This document shows positions 39,073 through 47,786 of a stretch of 64,000 nt of DNA, piece by piece. The notes beneath the pieces are model-generated. The model made no database searches. It was not told the DNA's origin and was given only the letters and a program-made list of their open reading frames with translations. The stretch covers positions 280,259 through 344,258 of the forward strand of contig JBAZLJ010000001.1 of assembly GCA_041650315.1 (NCBI GenBank), read 5' to 3'. Position numbers and translations under genes: made by a program. The DNA comes from Candidatus Woesearchaeota archaeon. Lineage in GTDB: Archaea; Nanobdellota; Nanobdellia; Woesearchaeales; JAGVYF01. Every line of letters starts with the position of its first letter. The stretch's first letter is position 1.

Positions 39073-40758
39073 CTATGGTGTACCGCAACCGCCGGCTGGA
39101 GCTTCAGATGTGCTCAATGTGCTTGTGCATCCGCTTAGACCGGGATTAGCTTCGCAATAGGTTTGCTTGATGGTGTTAGCATCGAAACCGCCGAATTGTT
39201 TCTGATTGTTAGCTATCCATGTAGGACTGCCGCCAATATTCAATTCTTGCGCAATCTTGATGTCTTCGCTCAGCAATGCTTTGCCTTCATCGCCTTTAGA
39301 GCAAGTTTCTACTTTTGTGGAATCTATGCTAGCTGCTAATGCGCAGTCTTTCCAATCTAAGTCTTTCACGCCATTAGTAGATCTGCAATAGATGAAATTA
39401 AGCCATTTTTCTTGTGATGCGTATTTATTAACGCATAATTGGACAATATCTTCATCAACTTCGTATTGGCCGTGTAAGCTTTGGAATTCTCCATTCTGTT
39501 CATTAGCTATGTAATGGACACTGTATTTGACGTCTTCTTTGAAGTTTGTGACTACTTCTTTCAATGCTTTAACTGCTTCTTTTCCGTAAGGGCAGTCGCT
39601 CATCACGAACAATTGAAGGTCTTTCTTGATTTCTTCTCTGCATTCGAATGCGTCATTGCACTCAGTGTCTGCGCAGTCAATAAGTTCGTTATTGTTGTCA
39701 TCCACTTCGTTGTCGCAGATTTCTTTAGTTGGATCGAAGCTTGCTCCAATCATCAAATTAAGATATTTGCCTGATGGGACGAAATATCTTTCGATGTTCA
39801 CATAATTAGCATCTGTCTTGACTTCTTCAGTGAAAAGGATAGCTGGCAATGCTGTCAATTGTAGTTCATTGTATAACGCTTTACCTTCTTCGGTTGAATA
39901 ATCAAGGTTTGTAACTGCGAGTTTTGGGAATAGTTGATTTTTCAATGATTGAATGATTGGCGCTGAATCACATTCTTTGCATCTTGCGTCATTCAATACT
40001 GTGATCTTCACTTCTTTGATCTCAGGCAATTCTGCGCATGCTGGGGCTTTGTTGCCTGTTGCTTCGCAGATTGCTCTTATTAGATCATTTGGTGCTCTTC
40101 CACCAGCATATTGCACGCCGTTCAAATAGATTGTAGGGCTGCCTTGGACATTGAGAGATTGAGCTTTCTGGAATGATGCTGCGAGCAATGCTTTGCCTTC
40201 TTCGCCTTGGTAGCAAGTTTCCAATGTTTTTGAATCAATGCCTATTTCATCAGCGCATGTTGTCAATGATGAGACTAAATCACTTGGATTGTTTTTGTTT
40301 TGGCATGCTATAAAATCGAAATATACTGCTGGATAATGGTTTTTTGCACAAGCTTGTATCAAATCGCCTATGACTTCTGGTTCTCCATGAAGGCTGTTGA
40401 AATTCGTTCCATCAGTCTGGCCAATGAATTCTATGTTCATATTGACATAGCCTTTCATCTTGTCAACAACTTCTTTGAATGAGTTTTCTGCCTGCACCCC
40501 ATAAGGACATTGGCTCATGACATAAAGGTCGATATTAGCTTTATCACTTACTGTTGCGAATCCGGTTATTCCGTCTAAAAGATTAGGATAATTAGAATTG
40601 ACTACATATCCGATTGCGAAAACAACTGCTACGATTACTAGAAGTTTCTTATAATCGAAATTGCTTGCTTTTTGTTCAACCTTTGCTTCGACATTGATGA
40701 AAGCAGGTTTCACTTCCGGTTTTGCCGGTTCTGGATTTGCTTGTTGTTCCATTTCCAT
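39073..40758 (-). CDS. Membrane-anchored protein with two tandem GILT-like (thiol-reductase-like) domains carrying non-canonical active-site motifs
   Basis: N-terminal TM LLVIVAVVFAIGYVV. Each ~220-aa repeat has CPYG (where GILT has CxxC) and [FI]xSLHG[EQ]xEV (where GILT has CQHGxxEC), plus the GILT-like hY[IV]a/GQ..G block. About 25 Cys in total. Confidence 0.45.
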   Translation of the reverse strand: MEMEQQANPEPAKPEVKPAFINVEAKVEQKASNFDYKKLLVIVAVVFAIGYVVNSNYPNLLDGITGFATVSDKANIDLYVMSQCPYGVQAENSFKEVVDKMKGYVNMNIEFIGQTDGTNFNSLHGEPEVIGDLIQACAKNHYPAVYFDFIACQNKNNPSDLVSSLTTCADEIGIDSKTLETCYQGEEGKALLAASFQKAQSLNVQGSPTIYLNGVQYAGGRAPNDLIRAICEATGNKAPACAELPEIKEVKITVLNDARCKECDSAPIIQSLKNQLFPKLAVTNLDYSTEEGKALYNELQLTALPAILFTEEVKTDANYVNIERYFVPSGKYLNLMIGASFDPTKEICDNEVDDNNNELIDCADTECNDAFECREEIKKDLQLFVMSDCPYGKEAVKALKEVVTNFKEDVKYSVHYIANEQNGEFQSLHGQYEVDEDIVQLCVNKYASQEKWLNFIYCRSTNGVKDLDWKDCALAASIDSTKVETCSKGDEGKALLSEDIKIAQELNIGGSPTWIANNQKQFGGFDANTIKQTYCEANPGLSGCTSTLSTSEAPAGGCGTP

Positions 40759-40868: not shown

Positions 40869-41060
40869 TTAGATTTGTGTGTCTAAGTCTTGTTCCAATG
40901 CGTCTAGGTCAGATGTATCTACGCTTGTTTGGTCAATGGAATCGATATCCGATATGTCGGAACTTAAGTCCATTGAAGCATCTGTTGTTGTTTCTTTAGC
41001 GCAACCATACATTGTCGCTACTAATAACAACGCTAATATCAAAATTGCTGCTTTTTTCAT
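40869..41060 (-). CDS. Small secreted acidic lipoprotein-like peptide
   Basis: Signal peptide with ...VATMYGCAKE, then a D/S-rich 35 aa. Confidence 0.3.
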   Translation of the reverse strand: MKKAAILILALLLVATMYGCAKETTTDASMDLSSDISDIDSIDQTSVDTSDLDALEQDLDTQI

Positions 41061-41071
41061 TCATCTCACCT

Positions 41072-42427
41072 TTATGCAGTTCCTTCAACAGCTGCTTCTG
41101 CTGCATCTGTATTGGATTCTGCAAGCTCTTCAACGCCTTCATTGGATACTACGCTTTTTATAATTTGCTGTAGTATCTTCTGCGCATCTGCTAATGCTTG
41201 CTTAGCCAATTTCATGTGCTGTTCAGCTGCTTTGACGTATTCGTCAATAGCTTTCTTATCGGTGTCTGCCAGTTTAGCTTCGACTTTTTTATCCAATTCT
41301 GTCTGAGCTGCTTGGAATTCTGTCTTTGCAGTATCTAGCTTTACTTTGAATTGGTCTACCAATGGTTGGATAGTTGTTGTGTCTTTGCCGTTCTCTGTCA
41401 TCCTTTCCATGATCCTGTTCAATTTCACTTCAAGATATTTGGATTTGATGATTACTCCGCCCATTCTTGAGTTGACTAATCTTGCATTGACTGATTTGAT
41501 TACCAATTTAGCATCAGCAATAGCGCCTTTCATCTCTTTCATCGCCGCATTCACTTCTTCTTTGGTAGAATTTTCGTTAAGAGCTGCAATCTTTGCCTTG
41601 ACATCATTGATGTCTTCTATCTCTTGATCGAGCCAGCCTTTATAGACAATAGTGTTCTCTTCAGTTATATACTCTGAAGATTCTACATTAGCAAGCACTT
41701 TCTCAAGCATTTTGATAGTCTGGTCTGCTGCGTTGTTTGTCATGTCTCTTGCTTTAATTTTCAGTTCTTTATCCTTTTCTTCACAATCATCTGCTTCTTT
41801 GCAAACTTTTCTTTCTGCTAACTTAGCTGCTAAATCTGCTTTCAATGTCAGATGTTTTGCTTTAGCTTCGTCTACTCTAGCTTTTGCGTTAAGATAATTT
41901 AGGTTAGATTTCTCTTTCTTCTCTTTGATTAATTCTCTTACTTTGAACTCTTTGTCTTTATCGAATCCTTGGAATCCAGATTCGTCTTTCATTTCATTGA
42001 ATCTTTCGATTGCTTTGTTTTTAAGTTCAACGAGTTTCTGCAATCTTGTGAGATCCTTCTCTTGAAGTTTCTGCACTAGCTCAGTTCTTTTCTGCAGTTT
42101 CTCTTCACATTTAGTAGAATCGTTGCTTGTTTCTTTGCAAAGTTCTATTGCTTTATTCAATTGCTCTTGCTGAAATAACCTGAATTCTTCAGCTTTCAAG
42201 CTTTCAATTTCCCTTTCTCCAGCCATGACAGCTTTCCTTATAGAATTGATAGTATTTCCTTCGGAATCAGCCATCATCTTTGGTTCGTCTATTTCGTTTT
42301 CTTCGTCATCTTGTGTGCTATATTTACCATTTTTACCATTTTCTGCGAATGCTGTTGGTATTATGCTTATCATAAACATGCATAAAACCAATATCGCGAA
42401 TGTTTTTTTCATTTTCGTAACCTCCAT
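41072..42427 (-). CDS. Secreted long coiled-coil protein (K/E-rich)
   Basis: Signal peptide MKKTFAILVLCMFMISIIPTAFA. About 400 aa of heptad-rich, charged sequence with a few Cys. Confidence 0.4.
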   Translation of the reverse strand: MEVTKMKKTFAILVLCMFMISIIPTAFAENGKNGKYSTQDDEENEIDEPKMMADSEGNTINSIRKAVMAGEREIESLKAEEFRLFQQEQLNKAIELCKETSNDSTKCEEKLQKRTELVQKLQEKDLTRLQKLVELKNKAIERFNEMKDESGFQGFDKDKEFKVRELIKEKKEKSNLNYLNAKARVDEAKAKHLTLKADLAAKLAERKVCKEADDCEEKDKELKIKARDMTNNAADQTIKMLEKVLANVESSEYITEENTIVYKGWLDQEIEDINDVKAKIAALNENSTKEEVNAAMKEMKGAIADAKLVIKSVNARLVNSRMGGVIIKSKYLEVKLNRIMERMTENGKDTTTIQPLVDQFKVKLDTAKTEFQAAQTELDKKVEAKLADTDKKAIDEYVKAAEQHMKLAKQALADAQKILQQIIKSVVSNEGVEELAESNTDAAEAAVEGTA

Positions 42428-42569
42428 CGTTTGTTTTTGAATGTGATCTGCAGATATGATTTACGAATTTTGTTTATATAGATACTTTCAGATTAGTTTT
42501 GTTTGAAGCTTTATACGGGCGTTTAACACCTTAGGAAAGTTCATATGGTCAGTTTAATCTTTAAATCGG

Positions 42570-43337
42570 TTGAATCAGGCTTGTTTTGTTTTTTCATTGC
42601 AAAGCTTTTTATATCAATATTATTTAGATAAGGACATGAATAGATTATTTTTGTATCTGGCAATGTTCTTTGTTTTGACTTCATTAGTTTCGGCAGCAAC
42701 TGTTCATGGCTCAGTCTATGACCTTTCTCTTGAGAAAGTCAGCGATGTTAGGATGTCGGTTAATTCTGCTCCTGCGCAGACTTTGATATCTAAGGATGGG
42801 GCTTATTCATTTGAATTGCCATCAGGCGAATATATTTTGAAGGCGGAATATTATGAAAATAGAATTTTAATATCTACTGCTGAAGAGTCTGTGAAAATTG
42901 GTTCTGACGGGAATTATGTGATTGATTTAGTCTTATTTCCAGTGCTTGAGGAAGAAATCGATGATGTTGAAGTCCCTGATGAATTGAATGGTGATTCATA
43001 TTGGTATTATTATGCGCCGTTAATTATTTTTGTGCTGGTTTTGATTTATTTACGTTATCGCAAATTGCAGATTAGAAAATTGAAGATCATGAAACTTGAA
43101 GAGGCAAGGCATGTCGCGCATATCAAACCTTCTGTTGCCGTTGATCCTGAGCTTGAGAAGCTGTTGGATTTCATCAAATCGAATGAAGGACGAGTGACGC
43201 AGAAAGATGTGCGCAAAGCTTATCCTTCTTTGTCTGAAGCTAAAATCTCTCTTATGGTCGCTGAATTGGAGCATAAAGGGATAGTCAATAAAATAAAAAA
43301 GGGAAGAGGTAATCTCATATGGTTAAGAAAACATTAA
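42570..43337 (+). CDS. Membrane-anchored winged-helix transcription regulator: signal/anchor, extracytoplasmic beta-sandwich (CarboxypepD_reg-like) domain, TM, cytoplasmic wHTH
   Basis: Probable start is the internal MNRLFLYLAMFFVLTSLVSA. GSVYDLSLEKVSDVRMSVNS... is beta-rich. TM YYYAPLIIFVLVLIYL is followed by a basic stretch. The C-terminus LLDFIKSNEGRVTQKDVRKAYPSLSEAKISLMVAELEHKGIV is MarR/TrmB-like wHTH. Confidence 0.5.
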   Translation: MNQACFVFSLQSFLYQYYLDKDMNRLFLYLAMFFVLTSLVSAATVHGSVYDLSLEKVSDVRMSVNSAPAQTLISKDGAYSFELPSGEYILKAEYYENRILISTAEESVKIGSDGNYVIDLVLFPVLEEEIDDVEVPDELNGDSYWYYYAPLIIFVLVLIYLRYRKLQIRKLKIMKLEEARHVAHIKPSVAVDPELEKLLDFIKSNEGRVTQKDVRKAYPSLSEAKISLMVAELEHKGIVNKIKKGRGNLIWLRKH

Positions 43338-44104
43338 AACTTTTATTGTCTAAACTGAATCAGTCTAGATTTGTCCACAAATTAAAGCATTTCAAGTATT
43401 GGAGATTGGTATTCGCTGCATTTGCTATATTCATTTTATTCGGAGGATATTTCGGTTATTCATATCTTAAACAGAAGCAATTCACAGATGATTATAATGC
43501 GATGAATTCCAAGTATAAAGAAGCACTTTATGCAACAGGCAGCGCGCCAAAGACTTCGCTTGCTAAAGTTTCTGCGTATAATGATGCTTTCACTATATTC
43601 TTCAATAAGTATAGAGATAATCCGCCTAAGGATTTCGCTAAAGATATGTCTTTCTCCGGCGATATGGAAGCGATTGCTTTGCTTTCAGAGAATGCGTTGT
43701 TCTACACACAGGAATCAGAATATTCTCTAGCGCATGCTGAGCTTGAAAGCATACGTCAGGTCTGGCAGTTGCTTTTCAAAAGGAATGATGTGGGGATGAT
43801 GTCTTATTATATGACTGATTTCCATGATGCGATGGAATCCGTTATCTCTCTTGCTGATATAAAAGATGCAGCCGGCGTTTCTGAATTGTGCCCTTCACTT
43901 ACTGAGAAATGGGCTGCCATTAAGAACATGGAAGTGTCTTTCTCTGTCGATAAACTGATTGATTTCAAGAATCAGGTCTCTGCTGAGGAAATAAACGTGA
44001 GGAATCTTTGCTCTGCTGCAGAAAGTAAAAATATAGAAAAGCTGCCTTATCTGGCAGCAAAGATGAAATCAGGTTTCATCAGCGCATACTTAAGGTATGG
44101 CTGA
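43319..44104 (+). CDS. Membrane-anchored hypothetical protein (N-terminal TM, helical soluble domain)
   Basis: TM WRLVFAAFAIFILFGGYFGY. Overlaps the upstream regulator gene by 19 nt. Confidence 0.4.
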   Translation: MVKKTLKLLLSKLNQSRFVHKLKHFKYWRLVFAAFAIFILFGGYFGYSYLKQKQFTDDYNAMNSKYKEALYATGSAPKTSLAKVSAYNDAFTIFFNKYRDNPPKDFAKDMSFSGDMEAIALLSENALFYTQESEYSLAHAELESIRQVWQLLFKRNDVGMMSYYMTDFHDAMESVISLADIKDAAGVSELCPSLTEKWAAIKNMEVSFSVDKLIDFKNQVSAEEINVRNLCSAAESKNIEKLPYLAAKMKSGFISAYLRYG

Positions 44105-46140: not shown

Positions 46141-47238
46141 TTACTTGGCGCCGATGAATTTGAGTATCTCGTTTTCAAGATAATCGAAGACGCTTTCTTT
46201 CTTTTTCATTGGAGTTGGTCTGGTAAATTCCAATTCAGGCACTTGCGGGACTGGTTCAGGCAGGTCTATCCTCATATCATCTGGTTCCTGCGTTATGTCC
46301 GGCAGTTCTAATGTATTAGGAATATGATGCTTCTGTTCCATTGGTCTTGGCGCTTCCATCATAGGGAATGATTCCGGAAGTTCTCCGATTGTTTCGAATT
46401 TGATTGGTTCTATGTTCATGTTCTTCCTGCTTTCATATTTCAGAGCCATCTCATTGAATTTGTTCTTCAATGCTGTGATCTTTTCGATTAATGGTTTAAG
46501 CCTTCTTTGGCTGTGCTTGCTCTGCATCTTTATGAGTTTCATCTCGAACATCTTTATGGTCTTGTCGAGCTCTTTCATCTTATCTTTGTGTGCTTCCATT
46601 TTCTCATTCTCTTCAGCTACTTTTATCGCGATCAATTGATTAAGCTTGTCCTGCATCTGGGCAAGCGAGTTCTGCATAGTATCGACCCTTTTGTCTTTAG
46701 CCATGATTGGCTCTATTTTTTTAACTACTTCTAATGTAGGTCTGATTATCTCTTTCTTGATTATGACTGGGCTTCTGTGCTTGAGCTCTTTGAGTTCATC
46801 TGCTAATGCCTCTATTTTATCTTCTTGCTCTTCGTTGATGGATTCTTGTTCCTCTTCCCATTCTTCATCTTCTTTCACTTTACTTTCGATGTTGTTAACT
46901 TCTGAGAACAGGTCGTAGATACGTTTTTCATCTTTGCTGAGCTCTTTTTTAGTCTCATCAATTTTATTATCAGTCTCTTTTACTCTCGTATTAAGCAGAT
47001 TAAGAGCTTCTTTCTCTTTAGTCTCTACGATTATCTTAGGCATCATCGGTTGGAAATCGTCCTTGAATTTCCTGATTGTATCGCCTATATCAGAATGCTG
47101 TTTCGGTCCAGGCATATCGGTCATATGCGGTCTTTCTGTTTTTTTTATCTCAGGCATTTTCGGTTGTAAGTCTTCCTGTTTCAATCTCTTGAAATGTAGA
47201 AGTAATCTCCTGACTTTCCGAGGATGCAGTTCAGCCAT
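46141..47238 (-). CDS. Coiled-coil protein, paralog A (C-terminal motif EAPRPME...KKKESVFDYL)
   Basis: 365 aa. K/E-rich heptads. Pro/Met-rich termini. Shares the C-terminal motif with the adjacent gene. Confidence 0.4.
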   Translation of the reverse strand: MAELHPRKVRRLLLHFKRLKQEDLQPKMPEIKKTERPHMTDMPGPKQHSDIGDTIRKFKDDFQPMMPKIIVETKEKEALNLLNTRVKETDNKIDETKKELSKDEKRIYDLFSEVNNIESKVKEDEEWEEEQESINEEQEDKIEALADELKELKHRSPVIIKKEIIRPTLEVVKKIEPIMAKDKRVDTMQNSLAQMQDKLNQLIAIKVAEENEKMEAHKDKMKELDKTIKMFEMKLIKMQSKHSQRRLKPLIEKITALKNKFNEMALKYESRKNMNIEPIKFETIGELPESFPMMEAPRPMEQKHHIPNTLELPDITQEPDDMRIDLPEPVPQVPELEFTRPTPMKKKESVFDYLENEILKFIGAK

Positions 47239-47240
47239 TT

Positions 47241-47786
47241 TTATTTGAATAATTCAGAGAAGCTTTTCTTCTTTTTCTCAGGTAATCTTGGCGGAGGCGG
47301 CATTGGCGCTCCTGTCAATGGTTTTGATTCCATTGGTCTTGGTGCTGAGAAACTTGGCGGTGGCATAGGCGAAAAACTCTGTTTCGGCATATCAAAGCTC
47401 ATCTGCGGCTTTGATGAGGCGCCCATATTGCCTACCATTCTTTTGATGTATGGAATGTCACTATTCAGCATGTTCGCTACTGCGATTATGCCTTTTGCGA
47501 TCTTTTCATTTTGCTCTACTACCTGATCAAGTTTGTCTTGAATAGGTTTTAATTCTTTTATGAATAATTCTTCTTCTCTTTCTTCAAGTTTCATCTCTTC
47601 AGTTGCTTCTTCGAATGTCTGTGTGAAATCTTGGAGCGTTGTCGCTAACTTCTCCATAGTGTCCATGACATTCTCTGGACTTGCTTTCTTCTTAGAAACA
47701 GCTGTTTTTGTGAGTTTTAACGCTTCGATCTCTCTTTTCAGAGCATCAAGCTTCTCGAAAGGTAATGCTTCTTCATCTTTAGCCAT
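47241..47786 (-). CDS. Coiled-coil protein, paralog B (C-terminal motif SAPRPME...KKKKSFSELF)
   Basis: 181 aa. Helical N-terminal two thirds, then a Pro-rich tail PMPPPSFSAPRPMESKP...PMPPPPRLPEKKKKSFSELFK. Lies 2 bp from paralog A. Confidence 0.4.
   Translation of the reverse strand: MAKDEEALPFEKLDALKREIEALKLTKTAVSKKKASPENVMDTMEKLATTLQDFTQTFEEATEEMKLEEREEELFIKELKPIQDKLDQVVEQNEKIAKGIIAVANMLNSDIPYIKRMVGNMGASSKPQMSFDMPKQSFSPMPPPSFSAPRPMESKPLTGAPMPPPPRLPEKKKKSFSELFK

Follow-up and report, generated by a model that had tools for sequence, protein, structure and literature searches.

We analyzed a stretch of 64,000 nucleotides from Candidatus Woesearchaeota archaeon (metagenome-assembled genome, contig JBAZLJ010000001.1, positions 280,259 to 344,258 of the forward strand), which is called the window in the following. 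The locus of interest comprises two overlapping open reading frames (ORFs) on the plus strand, gene 1 (42570-43337 in the ORF list) and gene 2 (43319-44104). A first-pass annotation of this DNA had described gene 1 as a single-pass membrane regulator and gene 2 as its possible modulator. The overlap of 19 nt noted there was confirmed by the ORF coordinates, since gene 1 ends with the stop codon 43335-43337 and gene 2 opens with an ATG at 43319, and an identical overlap was found in the closest relative (locus L081; related loci are designated by L and a number). Divergent from gene 1 on the minus strand lies cc451 (41072..42427), whose product is a secreted coiled-coil protein that bears a signal peptide and has an acidic tail. 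A conserved non-coding element (42506..42566, plus strand) is located between the two divergent promoters and consists of (A/G)CTTTA units phased by 10 bp, abbreviated RCTTTA. The conserved partner of gene 1 is the divergent cc451 together with a small lipoprotein-like gene, which the first-pass annotation had missed along with the cis-element.

Domain architecture and membrane topology of the gene 1 protein

The mechanically called ORF of gene 1 begins with a TTG at 42570. We rejected this start in favor of the ATG at 42636, almost certainly the true start codon, which yields a protein of 233 amino acids (42636..43337, plus strand). This assignment follows from three observations. The corrected protein is 100% identical to the 233-residue public protein P0001 (hypothetical protein WC471_01655), the methionine of this ATG is the start in all 21 aligned homologs, and a core promoter with a TFB recognition element (BRE) and a TATA box (cAAAGCTTTTTATAT, 42600..42614, plus strand) lies 21-26 nt upstream of the ATG, with an equivalent CAAAATATTTTTATA at the same distance in about 50 related loci. 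The TTG is therefore upstream of the promoter, and the 5' extension of the mechanical ORF (42570..42635, plus strand), which holds this promoter, is probably not translated. Because of the short distance between BRE/TATA and ATG the mRNA of gene 1 is probably leaderless or nearly so. A scan for sigma-70 promoters gave results no better than shuffled sequences, the bacterial promoter model being uninformative for an archaeon.

Judged by its relatives, gene 1 is not a chance ORF, since 1033 homologs (E<=1e-3, protein clusters) share its length and architecture. Relatives occur in 415 species-representative genomes, which are labeled nearly without exception as Woesearchaeota, Nanoarchaeota or Nanoarchaeia; the taxon labels of many records of metagenome-assembled genomes are unreliable. 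No paralog of gene 1 was detected within the window. A protein with the complete architecture of signal peptide, beta-sandwich, transmembrane helix and DUF7343 domain is also encoded in L068 (3941-4660), a locus labeled Candidatus Methanoperedenaceae GB37 (GC 0.51). This locus has neither a cc451 neighbor nor the repeat element. Either the family is more widely distributed, or the assembly is mis-binned or chimeric.

The gene 1 product is a type-I single-pass membrane protein, and its AlphaFold2 (AF2) model reached a mean predicted local distance difference test (pLDDT) score of 83. It starts with a Sec-type signal peptide (42636-42695, residues 1-20) with cleavage between VSA and the following alanine; the family consensus is VNA before and AT after the cleavage site, and A20 is invariant in the alignment of gene 1 homologs. 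The next features on the plus strand are a transthyretin-like beta-sandwich (about 42696-42944, residues 21-100, AF2 pLDDT >92), an acidic linker of about 20 residues (42945-42995), the single internal transmembrane helix (about 42996-43058, residues ~121-141), a K/R-rich juxtamembrane helix which forms the stop-transfer stretch (43053-43100) and a winged helix-turn-helix (wHTH) domain of the DUF7343 type (about 43140-43334, residues 169-233), recognized by a Pfam match and in the AF2 model.

The 20 residues after the transmembrane helix contained more K+R than the 20 residues before it in 120/120 family members (means 6.8 vs 1.1). The stretch before the helix is acidic in the same set, with an average of 5.8 D+E over its 20 residues. 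Because of this charge asymmetry the N terminus is predicted to be outside and the C terminus with the wHTH inside the cell. The order proposed in the first-pass annotation, namely a signal sequence, an external beta domain, a transmembrane helix, a KR-rich stop-transfer stretch and an internal wHTH, was borne out by charge statistics, domain matches and AF2; sequence, fold prediction and charge statistics together establish this architecture. We found neither an extracellular placement of the wHTH nor a lack of HTH homologs. The beta domain itself also stood, but its size had to be corrected from about 110 residues to about 80 plus the 20-residue acidic linker.

By its modeled fold, the ectodomain is a seven-stranded, prealbumin-like sandwich of the transthyretin/CarboxypepD_reg type. 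A Foldseek search of the PDB with the beta-sandwich returned 6hif_Y (E=1.6e-5, template modeling score TMt 0.78), the transthyretin-like domains of carboxypeptidases D, N and M, and 5aq0_A, and in addition SlaB (8qox_B). With Pfam profiles, CarboxypepD_reg (PF13620) was matched with E=5.6e-4 and 20.7 bits, below the gathering cutoff of 32.3; PF13620 is precomputed on many gene 1 homologs. The ectodomain contains no cysteines.

For the wHTH, the Pfam family DUF7343 (PF24034) matched residues 174-230 (E=4.9e-13; 49.2 bits compared with a gathering cutoff of 27.6), and the same family was matched in 14/14 family members scanned. The gene 1 protein is a bona fide member of DUF7343, whose Pfam entry describes a domain of unknown function. 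The MarR/TrmB-like character assigned by the first-pass annotation was recovered as weaker, sub-threshold similarity to MarR (13/14 members, best E=6.6e-5), TrmB (12/14, best E=4.5e-5) and HTH_24 (13/14). Sub-threshold matches also include Cdc6_C and MCM_WH_arc, winged helices which do not belong to transcription factors. The modeled domain (pLDDT ~88) comprises helices at residues 171-182, 189-195 and 201-213 and strands at 186-188, 217-222 and 225-230, and the resulting topology H1-b1-H2-H3-b2-b3 is that of a winged helix. Helices for a MarR-type dimerization are absent from the protein; the PDB profile matches are weak. A sequence search with the gene 1 protein against the PDB gave no match.

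Conservation is concentrated in the ectodomain and above all in the wHTH. The wHTH is almost invariant, and fully invariant positions are located in helix 2 as well as in the recognition helix (S200, E201, A202, K203 and S205) and in the basic wing KIKKGRGN (K219, K221, K222, R224 and N226). Such conservation would also fit a conserved protein partner, and the wHTH could be a structural tether or protein-interaction module by which, for example, the nucleoid or some cytoplasmic protein is anchored to an envelope complex with cc451 as one component. The wide occurrence of the family in Woesearchaeota (the 415 species genomes) with a single copy in the 64-kb window is compatible with this possibility, and so are the matches to Cdc6_C and MCM_WH_arc and the resemblance of the ectodomain to domains of surface-layer anchoring proteins such as SlaB. 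However, the best profile similarities of the wHTH are to the DNA-binding domains MarR, TrmB and HTH_24, the wing is basic, the recognition helix follows the usual pattern S-x-x-x-I-S-x-x-L-x-x-L-E-x-x-G, and a sequence-specific conserved element travels with gene 1. We consider a purely structural role unlikely and a DNA-binding wHTH the preferred interpretation.

In the alignment of gene 1 homologs, the transmembrane helix and the linkers are not conserved, and this combination of conserved domains and variable connections is the pattern expected of a tether. The type-I topology could also serve a latent, membrane-sequestered transcription factor, which would be inactive on DNA while tethered and from which a site-1 cut in the acidic linker and a subsequent intramembrane cut would free the wHTH in the manner of RsgI/RseA or Notch. 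The exposed acidic linker of about 20 residues (pLDDT ~50 at residues 114-119) and a disordered juxtamembrane linker (residues 162-166) would suit such a mechanism, but the variable transmembrane sequence has no conserved helix-breaking motif and no protease gene is conserved in the neighborhood of gene 1. An anti-sigma-like function, which the first-pass annotation had considered, found no backing either: no Pfam match to an anti-sigma family was obtained, and archaea are not known to have sigma factors. Neither the proteolysis nor the anti-sigma reading gained positive support, and a release of the wHTH by proteolysis seems distinctly unlikely to us. A wHTH which would act while it is tethered to the membrane is the interpretation that we favor.

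A divergent secreted protein and a phased element in the intergenic region

A homolog of cc451 was found immediately upstream of gene 1, on the opposite strand, in about 62 of 79 loci. These homologs are about 450-470 amino acids long and have acidic tails; an N-terminal signal peptide was present in 63/64 and a C-terminal anchor in 0/64. For cc451 of the window the second ATG (42412), which follows a GGAGGT motif, is likely the start codon. The protein gave no match to Pfam or the PDB. Downstream of cc451 is a small gene for an acidic, lipoprotein-like product of 63 amino acids (40869..41060, minus strand), which is probably part of the same operon. In 19 loci a homolog is found at the equivalent place, and genes for 62-66 amino acids were called there in the four closest relatives L081, L082, L084 and L117. 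The two proteins are possibly a surface or envelope component. A probable core promoter of cc451 with a minus-strand BRE and TATA box (GAAAGTATCTATATAAACAA, 42470..42489) aligns with an invariant TTTATAAAnAAACTTT block in 32 loci.

The element adjoins this minus-strand BRE/TATA block. Its consensus is TTTTAAAGCTTTACAAAGCTTTATTTgGgCTTaTTTTgCTTTAaAAAG and its length is about 60-75 nt across loci; other copies are located, for example, at 3344-3416 in L014 and at 3779-3851 in L020. The palindrome TAAAG-N10-CTTTA occurred in 20/55 intergenic regions compared with 0.13 in shuffled sequences. A pattern of two units was found 36 times inside the intergenic regions between cc451 and gene 1 and once in about 400 kb outside, and it was present in 38/75 windows upstream of gene 1 but only in 2/348 control upstream windows. 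The units of the window copy are degenerate apart from one perfect AAGCTTTA at 42506-42513. We rejected AAGCTTTA as a motif common to the promoters of the genome, since its number in the window (6 observed) is close to the expectation (5.1). Rfam gave only a meaningless sub-threshold match, and the element was discarded as a known RNA.

To describe the element independently of the window we used R1, a sequence-only model built from 33 loci with the window excluded; its E-values are rough. In the held-out 64-kb window R1 gave exactly one match, at 42506-42566 (15.2 bits, E ~1e-3). About 24 further held-out loci were matched upstream of gene 1, and no off-target match with E<1e-3 occurred in about 760 kb searched. 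The element is a candidate operator or upstream activating sequence.

A different origin of the element has to be considered as well: it may be curved DNA or the site of another, possibly global, factor that drives a strong expression of cc451, with the targets of gene 1 elsewhere. Alternating A- and T-tracts in helical phase are typical of curved DNA, and the element lies immediately upstream of the cc451 BRE/TATA. Conservation, however, extends beyond the A/T tracts to the central G/A-C dinucleotide of each unit, and no copy was detected at another promoter in the ~760 kb searched. The arrangement at loci where cc451 and gene 1 are separated also speaks against an unrelated element. In 5/5 such cases gene 1 has retained a copy about 120-165 nt upstream, and in L007, L023, L029 and L050, where another gene lies between the two, the element occurs twice, once for each promoter. 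This duplication on separation is the strongest indication in the sequences that both genes depend on the element. We regard an element unrelated to the gene 1 product as quite improbable and a site for this product as the favored assignment.

Gene 2 and its association with gene 1

Gene 2 (43319..44104, plus strand) encodes a protein of 261 amino acids with a K/R-rich N terminus inside, one transmembrane helix (residues ~30-50) and an all-helical extracytoplasmic domain, which AF2 modeled as two four-helix bundles (pLDDT 93). The helical domain is predicted to be outside the cell because family variants include a lipoprotein form and fusions to a YgaP-like transmembrane domain and because two cysteines are invariant among the closest homologs. 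In the lipoprotein variant the domain is present in two copies, and the fused forms have about 300 amino acids. The two cysteines and an FHD.ME motif are conserved among the closest homologs (alignment A5), H169 is conserved in at least 90%, and H139 is nearly invariant in this closer set.

A word-index search for homologs of gene 2 returned only the query itself, and a full HMMER search revealed 131 distant homologs, 6 of them with E<1e-30. No match was obtained in Pfam and NCBIfam, and a Foldseek fold search of the PDB gave none with E<=1e-3. The best local Foldseek matches were weak hits to variants of cyt cb562 (cytochrome b562; TMt 0.65-0.71, E>=0.08). Bundles of the cytochrome b562 type bind haem through Met/His ligands, and the conserved H169 and H139 were considered in this respect.

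The modulator function that the first-pass annotation had proposed for gene 2 was not supported by conservation of the gene pair. With a hidden Markov model (HMM) of the gene-2 family we found no member in the 4-kb flanks on either side of gene 1 at 79 other genome loci (0/79). Among the four closest gene 1 relatives (51-55% identity) only L081 contains gene 2, with 40% protein identity; in L082, L084 and L117 a convergent thrS follows directly after gene 1. From this distribution gene 2 looks like an insertion in one sub-lineage. It is a lineage-specific accessory with its N terminus inside and its C terminus outside, and the scan of the 79 loci together with the contexts of the closest relatives led us to reject it as the conserved partner. 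Elsewhere in Woesearchaeota the commonest gene downstream of gene 1 encodes a PCC-domain protein of 139 amino acids (16 loci, often with a 4-nt overlap). This PCC/DUF296-domain protein (PF03479, E=4.5e-31) is found at 4699-5118 in L003 and in 15 other loci; the 64-kb window has none.

Gene 1 and gene 2 could nevertheless form an obligate sensor/regulator pair in which gene 2 modulates the ectodomain, comparable to ToxR and ToxS of Vibrio cholerae. ToxS is a single-pass protein with an extracytoplasmic domain and is co-transcribed with ToxR as its operon partner (PMC7496328). The 19-nt overlap, kept in L081, and a Shine-Dalgarno-like GAGGT 8 nt before the gene 2 ATG, within the invariant G-R-G codons of gene 1, imply co-translation, and the folded domains of both proteins are outside. 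A second, independent association was found in L085, where a gene-2 homolog stands directly after a different, two-transmembrane-helix DUF7343 protein. This low-GC metagenome contig (525-1987) encodes, in this order, a membrane protein of 73 amino acids, which by eye we take to be SHOCT-like, the DUF7343 protein (143 amino acids, E=9.4e-12) and the gene-2 homolog. L085 is, however, the only 1 of 32 metagenome loci with gene-2 relatives that has a membrane-anchored DUF7343 protein immediately upstream. Most gene-2 homologs have no DUF7343 neighbor and are often fused to the YgaP-like domain, and the absence of gene 2 from the 79 loci and from L082, L084 and L117 means that gene 1 works without gene 2 in nearly all genomes. 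A modulator role is thus possible but not general, and an obligate pair appears highly unlikely.

Members of the gene-2 family, YgaP-like-fused or free, recur near small wHTH regulators of the PadR and ArsR/HTH_5 types in L100 (2267-5828), L107 (29-3672) and L118 (440-5837). Further neighbors in these loci are thioredoxin/glutaredoxin genes and ABC transporters of the MacB/FtsX type, which are accompanied by an HlyD-like adaptor. For L100 and L107 we read the labels PadR, thioredoxin/glutaredoxin and HlyD from the translations; the labels in L118 are precomputed Pfam assignments. Genes for thioredoxin-fold proteins are near gene-2 relatives in L100 and L118 and also in the window, where a membrane-anchored protein of 561 amino acids with two GILT/DsbA-like thioredoxin-fold modules is encoded at 39073-40758 (minus strand) and is syntenic in L081, L084 and L117. 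These neighbors hint at an extracytoplasmic redox theme.

A candidate membrane-tethered regulator

The first-pass annotation had likened gene 1 to ToxR-type signaling. This proved a fair analogy in logic but did not hold as a statement of family membership. As in ToxR/ToxS of V. cholerae, and also in CadC and TcpP/TcpH, one transmembrane helix connects a sensor domain outside the cytoplasm with a wHTH inside. While membrane-bound, ToxR acts on DNA and recognizes direct repeats (TNAAA-N5-TNAAT) that are spaced by one helical turn (PMC7496328). In contrast to ToxR, the N terminus of gene 1 is outside and begins with a cleavable signal peptide, so that the orientation is reversed, with the wHTH at the C terminus. 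This wHTH belongs to the DUF7343/MarR/TrmB type and not to the OmpR/PhoB type (Trans_reg_C, PF00486); Trans_reg_C gave no match to gene 1 at E<=1 and was not among the 25 commonest of the 39 families matched by the isolated wHTH. Further differences are the transthyretin-like ectodomain without cysteines, the non-conserved downstream gene 2, and the host, which is an archaeon with a TBP/TFB promoter.

Membrane-bound regulators of this kind had been called barely described in archaea. This is roughly correct, as the only characterized cases that we found are ArnR and ArnR1 of Sulfolobus acidocaldarius, which are membrane-bound transcription factors binding cis boxes in the promoter of a cell-surface structure (PMC6396743). 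In ArnR, the HTH at the N terminus is combined with a HAMP-like domain, a sensor domain in the cytoplasm and two C-terminal transmembrane helices, and there is no folded extracytoplasmic domain (PMC6396743), whereas gene 1 has an extracellular beta-sandwich, one transmembrane helix after the signal peptide and a C-terminal wHTH. Pfam scans of the gene 1 protein revealed neither a HAMP domain nor a sequence relation to ArnR. On the other hand, the architecture of gene 1 is already captured by Pfam domains (PF13620 and PF24034), both of which are precomputed on many homologs. Our literature searches on DUF7343, COG2512 and transmembrane regulators of Woesearchaeota returned nothing relevant, and we found no annotation or paper that contains the divergent partner or the phased repeats.

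The repeats recognized by EarA, the euryarchaeal archaellum regulator A, are 6-bp motifs of the TACATA type. EarA is an archaeal wHTH activator which binds four short repeats directly in front of the BRE of a surface-structure gene (PMC5512572). The RCTTTA array has the same geometry relative to the cc451 promoter, and its place just upstream of the cc451 BRE/TATA is a position typical of archaeal activators. Unlike gene 1, EarA is soluble, and the two proteins share no sequence relation.

We propose that gene 1 is a membrane-tethered one-component regulator, ToxR-like in logic, which controls itself and an envelope operon and for which we infer DNA binding; in our judgment the case for this proposal is evenly balanced. 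After cleavage of the signal peptide, the transthyretin-like beta-sandwich faces the outside, and the transmembrane helix and the basic linker hold the near-invariant DUF7343 wHTH at the inner face of the membrane. The wHTH, probably as a dimer or higher oligomer, would bind the RCTTTA array between the promoters of gene 1 and cc451. Binding would probably be cooperative and oligomeric, since all units face the same side of the DNA helix and the AAAGCTTT core of each is a palindrome. The beta-sandwich would sense an extracytoplasmic or envelope cue, in response to which the expression of the cc451 operon and of gene 1 would be adjusted. In the lineage of the window gene 2 would be a translationally coupled, membrane-anchored helical protein outside the core system, which may conceivably serve as a ToxS-like co-sensor or stabilizer.

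Several observations weigh against this proposal. The isolated wHTH profile matched solved DNA-binding proteins of the PDB only weakly (best E=0.15), and we found no experimental work on any DUF7343 protein in the literature. DNA binding and the connection between gene 1 and the element are deduced from adjacency and co-conservation, and the A/T tracts in helical phase could reflect an intrinsic curvature of the promoter or be occupied by another factor. About one quarter of the loci have no clear element, and the copy in the window is weak (15 bits, E ~1e-3) and does not show the strict two-unit pattern. Coiled-coil composition may have inflated the homology calls for cc451, although the homologs agree in position, strand and signal peptide.

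A more specific form of the membrane-tethered regulator can be put forward only tentatively, and we hold it to be rather doubtful. The ectodomain might monitor the state or occupancy of the cc451 surface protein, possibly during cell-cell or host contact, and the wHTH, acting cooperatively on the RCTTTA array, might co-regulate cc451 and gene 1 itself. This feedback would constitute a core envelope-to-genome circuit of Woesearchaeota and related DPANN archaea.

Two other regions of the window were recorded in the course of the analysis. Between 2750 and 9305 (plus strand) the DPANN genome carries a classical two-component cluster. It encodes a response-regulator receiver (116 amino acids), a DUF7504-like protein, a dCache-HAMP-HisKA-HATPase histidine kinase (748 amino acids), a PAS-containing membrane protein (764 amino acids) and a hemerythrin-domain protein (133 amino acids). 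Downstream of thrS, two minus-strand genes (46141-47238 and 47241-47786) encode coiled-coil or low-complexity proteins without a Pfam family, and they are syntenic with genes for 368 and 182 amino acids in L081.

The genomes of DPANN archaea are tiny and encode few transcription factors, their lifestyles depend on the cell surface, and how they sense the outside is almost uncharted. The locus links three pieces, a very widespread and highly conserved transmembrane wHTH protein, a candidate DNA target in the form of the RCTTTA array and a candidate regulated gene, cc451, and with these pieces a hypothesis open to direct test can be set up for a domain of unknown function. If the proposed feedback circuit is true, it would provide the first defined operator and regulon for a DUF7343 protein and the first archaeal ToxR-style transmembrane regulator with an extracellular sensor domain. 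Taken together, if gene 1 is such a regulator, transmembrane transcriptional signaling of the ToxR type would extend to archaea, with a different wHTH family and in the opposite membrane orientation.

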